Shown here one piece after another: positions 9,281 through 21,468 of a stretch of DNA of 64,000 nt. Source of the DNA: Eledone cirrhosa (Eukaryota); assembly GCA_964016885.1 (NCBI GenBank), contig OZ024746.1, positions 56,544,001-56,608,000 on the forward strand, given 5' to 3'. The translations under genes and the position numbers were made by a program. The notes beneath the pieces are model-generated. The model saw only the letters and a program-made list of their open reading frames with translations, was not told the origin of the DNA and did no database searches. Numbering within the stretch: the stretch's first letter is position 1; each line of letters opens with the position of its first letter.

Positions 9281-10704
9281 TTGGAATAAATGCTCTGAAA
9301 TAGCGATATATATGTGAATATAGACATAGAATATTCGAAAATATTCTGTATGTTTATAATAAACATTTTGAAGACCTAATCGCTATAGAATAGAATACGT
9401 CACGTATTACAATTAGATTCTCGATAAAAGCAAGGGAAGTAATCTACGCGTTTCATTCTTATTAGAAATCTTCAGGACTACATATCCAGTGCTTTTATCG
9501 AGAATGACACAGCTAGAGACTTATAGAATACTTAGCTGTGTACAGGAACTGGTTTGAAAGAGCGGTTGCCGGTCCGGCAGAAATTAGAAATTGGAATAAA
9601 TGCTCTGAAATAGCGATATATATGTGAATATAGACATAGAATATTCGAAAATATTCTGTATGTTTATAATAAACATTTTGAAGACCTAATCGCTATAGAA
9701 TAGAATACGTCACGTATTACAATTAGATTCTCGATAAAAGCAAGGGAAGTAATCTACGCGTTTCATTCTTATTAGAAATCTTCAGGACTACATATCCAGT
9801 GCTTTTATCGAGAATGACACAGCTAGAGACTTATAGAATACTTAGCTGTGTACAGGAACTGGTTTGAAAGAGCGGTTGCCGGTCCGGCAGAAATTAGAAA
9901 TTGGAATAAATGCTCTGAAATAGCGATATATATGTGAATATAGACATAGAATATTCGAAAATATTCTGTATGTTTATAATAAACATTTTGAAGACCTAAT
10001 CGCTATAGAATAGAATACGTCACGTATTACAATTAGATTCTCGATAAAAGCAAGGGAAGTAATCTACGCGTTTCATTCTTATTAGAAATCTTCAGGACTA
10101 CATATCCAGTGCTTTTATCGAGAATGACACAGCTAGAGACTTATAGAATACTTAGCTGTGTACAGGAACTGGTTTGAAAGAGCGGTTGCCGGTCCGGCAG
10201 AAATTAGAAATTGGAATAAATGCTCTGAAATAGCGATATATATGTGAATATAGACATAGAATATTCGAAAATATTCTGTATGTTTATAATAAACATTTTG
10301 AAGACCTAATCGCTATAGAATAGAATACGTCACGTATTACAATTAGATTCTCGATAAAAGCAAGGGAAGTAATCTACGCGTTTCATTCTTATTAGAAATC
10401 TTCAGGACTACATATCCAGTGCTTTTATCGAGAATGACACAGCTAGAGACTTATAGAATACTTAGCTGTGTACAGCTACACAGCTAAGTATTCTATAAGT
10501 CTCTAGCTGTGTCATTCTCGATAAAAGCACTGGATATGTAGTCCTGAAGATTTCTAATAAGAATGAAACGCGTAGATTACTTCCCTTGCTTTTATCGAGA
10601 ATCTAATTGTAATACGTGACGTATTCTATTCTATAGCGATTAGGTCTTCAAAATGTTTATTATAAACATACAGAATATTTTCGAATATTCTATGTCTATA
10701 TTCA
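9281..10704 (-). mobile_element. Tandem array of 310-bp HHR-bearing monomers (3.85 copies) plus 228-bp inversion; retrozyme-like
   Basis: TTGGAATAAA at 9281, 9591, 9901, 10211, with no differences seen between copies. 10477-10704 is inverted. Embedded in (TA)n. Confidence 0.92.
10514..10602 (+). ncRNA. Type I hammerhead with extended stem I; minus-strand copies at 9417-9505, 9727-9815, 10037-10125, 10347-10435
   Basis: GUAGUC-CUGAAGA-U-UUCU(aaua)AGAA-U-GAAA-CGC-GUA|GAUUAC, enclosed by a perfect 16-bp helix AUUCUCGAUAAAAGCA/UGCUUUUAUCGAGAAU. Confidence 0.92.
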
Positions 10705-11202
10705 TATATATATATATATATATATATATATATATATATATATATATATATATATATATATATATATATATATATATATATATATCGCGTCTATATCTTT
10801 CGTCCGTGATTTGATCGAACTTAAGTTCACAGATATCACGGACGCCTTATCTTCTGTTCGAATTTTATTCATATGTATCCCATTTGCAACAACGCAGCAC
10901 GCCATTTTTCATTTATATATATATATATATACATATATATATATATATATATATATATATATATATATATATATATATATATATATATATATATACATAT
11001 ATATGCATGTAAATTATCAAAATCTGTGTTTCCATTTTTCACCCTACAATCGAATGGAAGTTCTAAATAATTAAAAAAACATATTTCATCTCGGCAGCAT
11101 GAGATGTGCTGCAAAAATATAAAATATCTGATGAAACCATTACTTCAGTTTTATAATATAAACCAAGAAACATAACACACACTAGAAAGTTCACAGTAGT
11201 GT

Positions 11203-11330
11203 TCTACTACTACTACTACGACGACTACTACTACTACTACTACTACTACTACTACTATTACTACTACTACTACTACTACTACTACTACTACTACTACTAA
11301 TACTACTACTACTACTACTACTACTACTAC
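11203..11330. repeat. (TAC)n microsatellite
   Basis: Direct reading. Confidence 0.97.
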
Positions 11331-11894
11331 CACCTGTTCTCGTATGCCACAACCTCGTCATTCGTCTCACTACGATGAAGATCAAATCCAAAGTTTCTTC
11401 TTTCTCTCCTCAATTATAAAATTACTCCAAAGATATATTAATCTTATTTAATCCGCCTTTAATTAGAAGATTTATTCTGCAGCTTTTATTGTTTTTTTTA
11501 CAAAAGTTTCATGAAATAAAACATGCACAAACATAATATAACATTAATTATGACATTTAGGATCATGAAACATATACAAAATGCGAAAAGGCGTGGAGCC
11601 AGTAAAAAAGCTAGTGCAGATTGAGGGCGAGGATCAAACGAAGAAGACGAGTGCTGAAAGGAAGAGAAAATATGATGAAGTCATGGGAAGAGAAATATAA
11701 CCAGTCGAAAAGACAACAGCAAATAATTAAAACTGAAAATAGAAGAAGAAGAAGAAGAAGAATTAGAGGGAAGAACAGGGGATAGGTGTAGTTGTAACAC
11801 CAGGGCTATGGCAAGGAAGGAAGGGGAAGACGGAGAAGGGGTGGGCGAAGTAGAAGAGGGCAGCGGGGAGGTGTGGTAGTAATAGTATCACTAT

Positions 11895-12080
11895 TACTAA
11901 TTGTTTCTACTTTTGGGACAAGGCCACCAATTTACCAGTGTATCAGTGGTACTTTATTTTATCAACCCCGTAAGGATGAAAGGCAAAGTTAACCTCGACG
12001 GGACTTGAACTGAGACCGTAAAGGGACGTAACTATGCTAGAAAGCATGGCGTCCGGCGCTCTACCGATACTGCCAATTAT
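11895..12080 (-). mobile_element. MetaSINE-like SINE
   Basis: Reverse complement of the family sequence. Confidence 0.85.
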
Positions 12081-12189
12081 TAATAATGCTAAAAGGAGCT
12101 GTCCGTGAGATTGGCTTAAAAGAATCAGTTCGTTCTGTTTAGGCTGTTGACATCGATTCTAGTGGTAGTAGTGGGGGCGGGGGGGGGGT

Positions 12190-19062: not shown

Positions 19063-19122
19063 TTCCATTTACCAGTGGTTTCTTAAAAGCAAAAGATTTT
19101 GCTTTCAATCATCAGAATGAAA
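19063..19122 (-). ncRNA. Type I hammerhead in fold-back insert 19031-19357; mutated plus copy at 19200-19260
   Basis: Minus strand: UUUCAUU-CUGAUGA-UUGAAAGCAAAA/UUUUGCUUUUAA-GAAA-CCACUG-GUA|AAUGGAA. The plus copy has CUGAUUA. Confidence 0.85.
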
Positions 19123-19761
19123 AAATCCTGGTCTGTTTATTAAATTTGGATTTTAAAAACCGTTTTTAATATCCAAATTTAATAAACAGACCAGAATTAT
19201 TTCATTCTGATTATTGAAAGCAACATTTTTTTGCTTTTAAGAAACCACTGGTAAATGGAATAATTGCCTTATGTTGTTTATTACATAACTATTAAGCTCT
19301 GTTACCTACATAGAGCACTCTTTTTTCCTGGACTTTTCCGACGGAATTACTTCATTTATATATATATATGTATATATATATATATATATATATATATATA
19401 TATATATATATATATATATATATCTAAGGAAAATGGATGAAATCGAAAATGCAACTGATGCCTTTTTTATAAAAATATATATTTATTTGGTACCTTTACC
19501 GGTTTCGCAGTTCTTCTGCTTTTCAAAATTAGAATTGAGATGGAGGGTTTGTGGTTTTCGTCACATATGTATATTTTCACCCATATATATATATATATAT
19601 ATATATATATATATATATATATGTGTGTGTGTGTGTGTGTGTGTGTGTGTGTGTAAGTGTGCGCGTGTATGTGTGTGTATCCGTGAGTGTATGTTGCCCT
19701 ATGTAAAATATACATGTGTGTGTGTGTGATTAATAGAGGTGTATATGAAATCATATTCATT

Positions 19762-19837
19762 TTCACCTGATGAGCTCAGTGATAATCGATCATGGCTTTG
19801 CAATCGATCTATCTCTTATTGAAACATGTGTCGTGAT
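19762..19837 (+). ncRNA. Type I hammerhead candidate
   Basis: UCAC-CUGAUGA-..AUCGAU/AUCGAU..-GAAAC-AUGU-GUC|GUGA. The base of stem II is weak. Confidence 0.65.
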
Positions 19838-19895
19838 TAAATGATTGGAATGTTACCTTGCCTTCGGATTGTCATTTTGATATATATATATATAT

Positions 19896-21468
19896 GGATG
19901 TGTATATAATGTATTTTGCAATACACTTTATGCTTAATTAAAAGCATTTTGAAGACCGTAAGCTATTGTTTTAAAGTAGTGACAAATTCACTCACTTTGA
20001 TCTCAGCAAACAGGGGAGATGAGCCGACATGACATGTTTCGCTTTTGTTGAAGCTTATCAAGGCCAACTACCCCGCCTGTCTACTGAGATCAATGATGTT
20101 ATATTCTTATAGAAATCTAGTAAATAATCAGGAGCTGATTATGCAGAGCGGTTGTTGGTCAGGCAGAAATTAAAAATTAGAATTGGAGCTCTGAAATAGC
20201 AATATATATATGGATGTATATATAATGTATATTGCAATACACTTTATGCTTAATTAAAAGCATTTTGGAGACCGTAAGCTATTGTTTTAAAGTAGTGACA
20301 AATTCACTCACTTTGATCTCAGCAAACAGGGGAGATAAGCCGACATGACATGTTTCGCTTTTGTTGAAGCTTATCAAGGCCAACTACCCCGCCTGTCTAC
20401 TGAGATCAATGATGTTATATTCTTATAGAAATCTAGTAAATAATCAGGAGCTGATTATGCAGAGCGGTTATTGGTCAGGCAGAAATTAAAAATTAGAATT
20501 GGAGCTCTGAAATAGCAATATATATATGGATGTATATATAATGTATATTGCAATACACTTTATGCTTAATTAAAAGCATTTTGGAGACCGTAAGCTATTG
20601 TTTTAAAGTAGTGACAAATTCACTCACTTTGATCTAAGCAAACAGGGGAGAAAAGCCGACATGACATGTTTCGCTTTATCTCCCCTGTTTGCTGAGATCA
20701 AAGTGAGTGAATTTGTGACTACTTTAAAACAATAGCTTACGGTCTTCAAAATGCTTTTAATTAAGCATAAAGTGTATTGCAAAATACATTATATATACAT
20801 CCATATATATATTGCTATTTCAGAGCTCCAATTCTAATTTTTAATTTCTGCCTGACCAACAACCGCTCTGCATAATCAGCTCCTGATTATTTACTAGATT
20901 TCTATAAGAATATAACATCATTGATCTCAGTAGACAGGCGGGGTAGTTGGCCTTGATAAGCTTCAACAAAAGCGAAACATGTCATGTCGGCTTATCTCCC
21001 CTGTTTGCTGAGATCAAAGTGAGTGAATTTGTCACTACTTTAAAACAATAGCTTACGGTCTTCAAAATGCTTTTAATTAAGCATAAAGTGTATTGCAAAA
21101 TACATTATATATACATCCATATATATATTGCTATTTCAGAGCTCCAATTCTAATTTTTAATTTCTGCCTGACCAACAACCGCTCTGCATAATCAGCTCCT
21201 GATTATTTACTAGATTTCTATAAGAATATAACATCATTGATCTCAGTAGACAGGCGGGGTAGTTGGCCTTGATAAGCTTCAACAAAAGCGAAACATGTAT
21301 GTCGCCTTATCTCCCCTGTTTGCTGAGATCAAAGTGAGTGAATTTGTCACTACTTTAAAACAATAGCTTACGGTCTTCAAAATGCTTTTAATTAAGCATA
21401 AAGTGTATTGCAAAATACATTATATATACATCCATATATATATTGCTATTTCAGAGCTCCAATTCTAA
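19896..21468. mobile_element. Palindromic array of 316-bp HHR monomers (about 2.5 copies minus, then about 2.5 copies plus)
   Basis: GGATG unit start at 19896, 20212, 20528. Strand switch near 20676. TA tracts on both sides. Confidence 0.92.
20921..21017 (+). ncRNA. Type I hammerhead with U3-A8 core; copies at 21237-21332 (+), 19997-20093 (-), 20313-20409 (-)
   Basis: GGCC-UUGAUAA-GCUU(caacaa)AAGC-GAAA-CAUGUCAU-GUC|GGCU, with outer helix UUGAUCUCAGUAGACAGG/CCUGUUUGCUGAGAUCAA. Confidence 0.85.

Follow-up and report, generated by a model that had tools for sequence, protein, structure and literature searches.

The window analysed here is a 64,000-nt stretch of the Eledone cirrhosa genome (GenBank assembly GCA_964016885.1, contig OZ024746.1, positions 56,544,001 to 56,608,000, forward strand). 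It contains two tandem arrays, one of 310-bp units (A, 9280-10713) and one of 316-bp units (B, 19886-21469), both with an inverted second arm. We consider it probable that A and B are families of one superfamily of non-autonomous retrozymes without long terminal repeats (non-LTR), and that a block shared by their units holds two fixed sites at which the arms of an insertion end, likely the internal start sites of a Penelope-type reverse transcriptase (RT). Most likely, the block comprises the Penelope 'tail', the pair of RT start sites belonging to it and a further 30 nt that the protein would bind, and it does not serve mainly as a promoter.

Insertions end at two fixed sites within the shared block

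Unit positions are given on the ribozyme strand and are counted from the predicted cleavage site, which places the block at about 131-195. Arm ends were mapped in the window and at 59 loci of contig C1, taken from the top of the match lists for the block and B-type search patterns. The sample holds 50 head-to-head A/B pairs, with one duplicated insertion (L051) counted twice, and 14 single arms; there are no tail-to-tail joins. Forty-six pairs combine a proximal with a distal end, none combine two proximal or two distal ends, and four join a proximal end to another site (one-sided binomial for the one-of-each rule, 1.4e-14). L031 was mis-paired by the script; its outer ends are one proximal and one distal. 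Both arrays of the window obey the rule.

Proximal ends lie at the TA tract (~139). Distal ends fall at 158-178, mostly at 165/166, and lie 26-36 nt further inside the block; A165 and B166 account for 29 of the 100 paired ends, and minor distal sites occur at 169-177. No arm ends at the ribozyme cleavage site. Since the search pattern spans the distal site and the sequence 3' of it, the end types were not selected by the search. The left arm can carry either end type (26 vs 20), as can the longer arm (23 vs 23). Most arm ends abut (TA)n and a minority do not, as judged by inspection of the flanks and not by a scripted count. The preliminary description of this DNA had proposed a promoter or an RT-recognition signal as the function of the block, and the position of both insertion ends inside it supports the latter. 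The 30 nt beyond the distal site lie past almost all arm ends, yet they are conserved.

For the older, C-type subfamilies, 56 pairs comprise 41 mixed pairs, none of the same type and 15 with one other end, in a sample that is biased because the loci were chosen by the tail pattern, which hides proximal-proximal pairs. At the head-to-head junctions, the two arms overlap by 1-8 nt in 34 of the 50 A/B pairs. One A insertion junction (L031:2843-3020) contains extra short inverted pieces, which suggest repeated template switches.

Both arms of an insertion share one haplotype

In A, all 17 non-singleton variant calls are found in every covered unit of both arms, next to six single-unit changes. In B, 165 variants occupy all units of both arms and 26 are partial. 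The divergence between the arms of one insertion is 0.000 for A (14 pairs) and 0.018 for B (30 pairs), compared with 0.008 and 0.051 between insertions, and none of 10,000 permutations produced arm pairs as close as those observed in either family. No A/B chimeras were seen among the mapped arms. A single haplotype per insertion would fit one circle copied from both target ends. We also considered scars of A-to-G editing and rejected them: nine of the 17 shared-variant calls in A (four sites) are A>G and none T>C, which is too few, and B shows no bias.

A and B are diverged relatives with a common layout

The preliminary description had related the two monomers to each other through a matching block (9559-9625 and 20146-20210) and further common motifs, and the alignments bear this out. 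The blocks, at 9560-9622 and 20146-20208, are identical at 53 of 63 positions without gaps. Local alignment of the monomers scores 115, with 39 as the best of 1,000 shuffles, and the alignment runs over the full length of the units (207/326 columns). Sequence outside the block gives a global score of 155, which none of 500 shuffles reached (maximum 104), so homology extends over the whole units. The ribozyme domains share 48% identity, and CATTTTG[AG]AGACC and CTTATAGAA are common to both arrays. A and B are therefore colinear, diverged relatives in one superfamily. A further shared motif, TTCTATAAG, resembles the start codon region of the autonomous family H2 (15/17), but the pattern matched mostly H2 copies and a connection is unsupported.

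Both arrays consist of tandem units in the 150-400 nt range with one type I hammerhead per unit. No stop-free frame of at least 90 amino acids (aa) lies inside either array; of the listed frames, two overlap array A, and these consist largely of (TA)n. The features are listed in Table 1.

Table 1 Features of arrays A and B in the window. Unit positions follow the ribozyme strand.
Feature	Position	Strand	Description
Family A left arm	9280..10475	-	3.9 copies of a 310-nt unit; RNA 3' terminus at unit 165 (distal site), abutting (TA)n
Family A inverted right arm	10477..10713	+	RNA 3' terminus in the TA tract (proximal site, unit 130-139), abutting (TA)n
Family A type I hammerhead domain	9417..9505	-	C3-G8 core at 9475; 16-bp distal helix; predicted cut 9445/9444
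Other A hammerhead cores	9785, 10095, 10405 (-); 10544 (+)		
'Tail' half of the A block	9590..9625	-	Unit 130-165; includes the TA tract and GCT-ATTTCAG-AGC and extends to the distal end site; found at one arm end only
Post-distal half of the A block	9560..9589	-	Unit 166-195; conserved, past almost all arm ends; putative protein-binding part
Conserved zone upstream of the A block	9626..9690	-	GGTCTTC motif and long hairpin; conservation roughly equal to that of the block
Family B left arm	19886..20665	-	2.5 copies of a 316-nt unit; RNA 3' terminus in the TA tract (proximal site)
Family B inverted right arm	20666..21469	+	RNA 3' terminus at unit 166 (distal site), abutting (TA)n
Family B type I hammerhead domain	19998..20092	-	U3-A8 core at 20061; 17-bp distal helix (predicted)
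Other B hammerhead cores	20377 (-); 20953, 21269 (+)		
B shared block	20146..20208	-	Further copies at ~20462-20524 (-), 20806-20868 and 21122-21184 (+); a partial copy ends at 21469

The ribozyme is held by its fold and the block by its sequence

The hammerheads emerged from a motif scan and from folding; Rfam, at the gathering threshold, returned no matches in the whole window. They are located on the minus strand of the left arms at the same unit position, in each case on the strand opposite to that quoted in the preliminary description. The core is CUGAAGA (C3-G8) in A and UUGAUAA (U3-A8) in B. The distal helix is fully paired in both families, with 16/16 pairs in A and 17/17 in B, including two G-U. 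Ribozymes of different sequence at one unit position, with a distal helix of 16-18 bp, had been noted in the preliminary description, and both features stand. Each unit folds better than all of 100 shuffles (z about -4.3). The core is intact and the stems covary strongly.

Over 17 aligned units, the core pair is C-G in 4, U-A in 11 and mismatched in 2. Both sides have changed in pair 3-8, in all four pairs of stem II, in 2/3 of stem I, 1/3 of stem III and 5/11 of the distal helix. In the block region, this is the case for none of the six pairs of the predicted block-closing helix, one of five in its inner hairpin and two of eight in the upstream hairpin; the shuffle test of covariation is inflated by related sequences. 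An alternative short hairpin in the tail shows no covariation at all. The ribozyme is held by its fold and drifts through compensatory changes, and the block region is held by its sequence. The two-sided changes support structure-level selection on the ribozyme, and the uncompensated block helix supports a sequence-level cis element, both as proposed in the preliminary description.

The superfamily is large and the block belongs to a wider conserved zone

An exact 22-nt block pattern has 16,958 matches in the genome, 1,479 of them B-type, while a third tail variant has 4,605 and a fourth pattern 349. Reversed-pattern controls for the four counts gave 0, 0, 0 and 1. In total, the superfamily accounts for more than 20,000 exact motif matches at dispersed loci. 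From the fetched loci, 91 distinct full units formed 18 clusters at 92%; 17 clusters and the two window units were aligned, and L077, which carries a deletion, was excluded. A is 59-69% identical to the other clusters, which are 68-92% identical among themselves. The A unit was also matched in twenty sequencing runs under 18 organism labels, from which we do not claim horizontal transfer.

When A is set against the 16 other units, conservation is 0.80 in the block (0.75 without the 13-nt anchor), 0.72 in the 66 columns upstream and 0.46 in the ribozyme domain. Among the 16 B/C-type units, the corresponding values are 0.81 (0.77 without the search anchor), 0.88 and 0.63, with 0.79 in the other non-ribozyme columns. 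Many clusters are single old copies, so these figures include neutral decay. The block is the 3' half, or peak, of a conserved zone of about 130 nt. It is more conserved than the ribozyme everywhere, and it stands out over the upstream sequence only when A is set against the rest. The picture of a uniquely conserved island is thus not supported. The comparison with the rest of the unit over many copies, as suggested in the preliminary description, has a mixed outcome: the block exceeds the ribozyme throughout, but among the B/C-type units it does not exceed the upstream columns. The built-in TA tract at the end of the block is present in A and B but interrupted in several subfamilies (L042, L120, L142, L160).

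Autonomous Penelope-like elements use paired end sites

The genome contains many Penelope-like RT-endonuclease families. Their names as Hydra-, Neptune- and Poseidon-like are presumptive assignments, based on motifs such as those described in PMC8557442 and not on a tree. The young Hydra-like family H2 has one end of each kind, about 92 nt apart, in 18 of 19 complete pairs (two of the pairs read by eye), and the remaining one is distal-distal. In the young Neptune-like N1, all 11 pairs have one end of each kind. The pairs of both families were chosen for opposed open reading frame matches. The tail measures 45-56 nt in N1 and ~92 nt in H2.

Head-to-head insertions flanked by TA were also collected automatically and fell into 44 tail groups; 12 were dropped as A/B/C or simple sequence, and the rest were merged into 28. 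RCTC occurs 4-14 nt into the tail in 20 of the 28 groups (shuffles: mean 2.3, maximum 9). GAGY closes it in 15 groups, with 8 G-C, 7 A-T and no mixed combinations, and 13 of the 15 pair in the predicted fold. The RCTC...GAGY motif recurs past the distal site in several read-through copies. It is absent from N1, and N2 lacks its closing strand. In A, B and C, GCTA...GAGC follows the proximal end site by about 10-11 nt, with 3/4 pairs and no covariation, as it is invariant. At the distal site, a different GCY hairpin lies 11-13 nt downstream; one of its five pairs is compensated and it is partly lost in B. The spacing is equal, whereas the match to the Hydra-like hairpin is only partial. A tail family that also occurs in the window, L040, has GTTC...GAAC, a second compensated form of the RCTC...GAGY stem.

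Proposed mechanism

An array would be transcribed, cut by its hammerheads to unit length and probably circularised, by analogy with published retrozymes (PMC7229834). A Penelope RT-endonuclease may bind in trans in and around the block, and would cut both strands of a (TA)n target, as suggested by in vitro work (PMC11167929). Priming by one DNA end would take place at the proximal site and by the other end 26-36 nt 3' of it, at the positions where arms are observed to end. Both would copy the same template, presumably a circle, for a variable number of rounds, consistent with the single haplotype. The two complementary DNA (cDNA) ends would then join head-to-head by short microhomology, to which the junction overlaps point.

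We put forward a more specific version tentatively, as one that could well be wrong. A single small RNA circle would be bound by a dimer of a Penelope RT-endonuclease, with a short GCY hairpin about 11 nt 3' of either subunit. Each end of the (TA)n break would prime one subunit, and both would run round the circle by strand displacement. The block and ~65 nt upstream would be a minimal portable loading signal, and the one-site-per-end rule would be general to Hydra and Neptune elements. If true, this gives one account for both the one-sided tail and the tandem and inverted structure.

Several observations weigh against the retrozyme and double-priming interpretation. The autonomous elements obey this end rule too, although they are not short circles. 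The preliminary description had suggested looking for the block at the ends of autonomous Penelope-like elements, and neither the block nor a pseudo-LTR (pLTR) homologue was found in six families (H1, H2, N1, N2, P1, P2), with 150 candidates scored per search out of tens of thousands genome-wide. In vitro, both strands used the same start sites and ribozyme cleavage was dispensable (PMC11167929). A homogeneous linear multimer would give one haplotype just as a circle would. Four B variants fill one arm only and 229 are confined to a single unit, although later mutation is the likely cause of both. Proximal junctions are blurred by the TA tract, and among B/C-type units the block is no more conserved than the sequence upstream. 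Transcription, cleavage, circularisation, block binding and double priming are steps that we infer. An alignment of A with the 3' region of H2 (score 36) was rejected, as it falls inside a shuffle range (up to 39) derived from other sequences.

Alternative explanations

The block could instead be kept mainly as an internal promoter, with the TA tract as a TATA box, a transcription start ~30 nt downstream near unit 165, and arms ending there through AT-richness. Rotifer pLTRs do contain a TATA-like motif with an initiator-like sequence (PMC3846280), the TA tract precedes the distal site by 26-34 nt, and three B arms start at position 165. AT-richness, however, cannot yield the one-of-each end rule, and the tails of N1 and H2 show that the distal site is not generally 30 nt from a TATA box. 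The interruption of the tract in four subfamilies also argues against it. RNA polymerase III (Pol III) A and B boxes, which would also mark a tRNA-derived short interspersed element, were absent from both strands in a search with consensus motifs. The promoter option of the preliminary description therefore has no positive evidence, and we regard a mainly promoter-driven block as unlikely; a promoter overlapping the RT signal is conceivable.

About equally improbable is a tail made at the DNA level, by an endonuclease that recognises the block in fold-back or extrachromosomal DNA and makes staggered cuts. The tail has been ascribed to endonuclease resolution (PMC8557442), recognition by the D. 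virilis endonuclease depended on it (cited in PMC11167929), and a self-priming model has been put forward for head-to-head junctions (PMC3846280). The uncompensated block helix would fit a DNA-level signal as well. Fold-back copying, though, predicts that one arm type is never longer, and it is rejected by the arm lengths, as neither arm is regularly longer. The arms share polarity toward the ends, so symmetric recognition of DNA predicts the same cut at both, and the tail boundaries coincide with RT start sites in vitro (PMC11167929). We give still less credence, and very little, to a module swap in which recombination between families, and not long selection, supplied or maintained the block, A having received a foreign ribozyme on a B-like scaffold. 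A is much less similar to the rest in columns 104-260 (0.48, 0.35) than in columns 261-57 (0.63-0.78 outside the anchor), and its core and stem II match the hammerhead of another family at 31/36 positions. This match does not extend beyond stem II and the constrained core. Shared motifs still flank the ribozyme on either side, the unit layout is equal, and the B/C ribozyme also drifts fastest without any swap. The function of the block would be unaffected in any case.

Comparison with known systems

Animal non-LTR retrozymes (Cervera and de la Pena 2020, PMC7229834; Li, Clavereau and Pollet 2026, bioRxiv 10.64898/2026.07.22.740005) resemble A and B as non-coding tandem units of ~310-320 nt with one type I hammerhead each. 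Further common traits are a low GC content, copy numbers in the thousands and the co-occurrence of Penelope-like elements. Expression and circles have been shown for published retrozymes, with mobilisation from circles by a Penelope RT proposed, whereas A and B are known here from genomic sequence. Two-armed head-to-head arrays, fixed end sites and a conserved RT-start region, all present in A and B, do not appear in the available parts of the two papers.

For Poseidon_Ac (Frangieh et al. 2024, PMC11167929), the Penelope RT used two internal start sites in vitro with the tail between them, and both target strands were cut and extended. RNA 3' of the starts was required and a dimer was predicted. 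A and B share the two fixed sites tens of nt apart, ~100 nt 3' of the hammerhead cut, the tail between them, the importance of the sequence 3' of the starts and the AT-rich target. They differ in being protein-free, and their genomic pairs almost always use one site per end, while in vitro both strands used both. The proximal site of A/B can also pair with a TA target, unlike that of Poseidon_Ac. Endonuclease-bearing (EN+) Penelope-like elements of the Hydra and Neptune clades (Craig et al. 2021, PMC8557442; Arkhipova et al. 2013, PMC3846280) likewise have an inverted, 5'-truncated arm, a tail at one end and a (TA)n bias, but in A/B both arms are multi-copy concatemers of one short unit, and the A/B/C tail only half fits the RCTC...GAGY hairpin of the Hydra-like families of this genome. 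U3-A8 cores, palindromic short helices III and high within-genome variability are already published for fast-evolving minimal hammerheads of Penelope elements (Cervera and de la Pena 2014, PMC4209133); the A/B superfamily has both core states in one alignable set, plus a distal helix of 16-17 bp.

Retrozymes, the tail and two-site initiation are thus already published, and this footprint in retrozymes was not found in print. In the literature available to us, we found no report of two-armed retrozyme arrays or of a retrozyme conserved region that equals the tail; end pairing may also be addressed in supplementary figures of PMC11167929 and PMC8557442, and ribozymes are unmentioned in the accessible part of PMC13282606. 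These observations bear on the origin of tandem, inverted, one-tailed Penelope-like insertions and on retrozyme mobilisation by such elements, the case for which consists of co-occurrence and phylogeny. Here, the full Penelope insertion footprint is displayed by a protein-free 310-nt unit, and comparison between families separates the part read as sequence, the start region, from the part read as a fold, the ribozyme. The substrate is very short, two candidate start positions can be named and the same genome has several RT genes that are young and intact, so double priming on a circle could be tested in vitro.

Other elements in and around the window

The (TA)n tracts flanking array A are a nest of many different elements. 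Beside them lie two related short elements with a common 3' end (9155-9245 and 10785-10914). Fragments of two Hydra-like families are found at 58260-58950 (-) and ~59700-63200. The second is H2, a young family represented elsewhere by numerous identical copies and by 738-aa frames. The endonuclease fragments of the window were not recognised by Pfam. Neptune-like N2 3' ends with a U3-A8 hammerhead core occur at 19423-19580 and near 39983. At 19034-19357, a short head-to-head hammerhead element matches the 5' region of the Hydra-like H1 (L186) and has a tail of 67-81 nt with a GCTC...GAGC hairpin.

A two-armed array of 483-bp units in (TA)n, at 3169-4770, has ends ~107 nt apart and, by eye, GCTC ~10 nt after each end site; the scan for the standard hammerhead core did not match it. 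Outside the window, another tandem unit with two arms occurs at L339 (several copies), L170 and L245; its tail measures 40 nt, and it contains a tRNA-like stretch that includes a B-box-like word. In exact 4.2-kb tandems of N1 (L317:616-7142), a 476-aa upstream frame overlaps the 775-aa RT frame in another phase, possibly through a frameshift or an intron.

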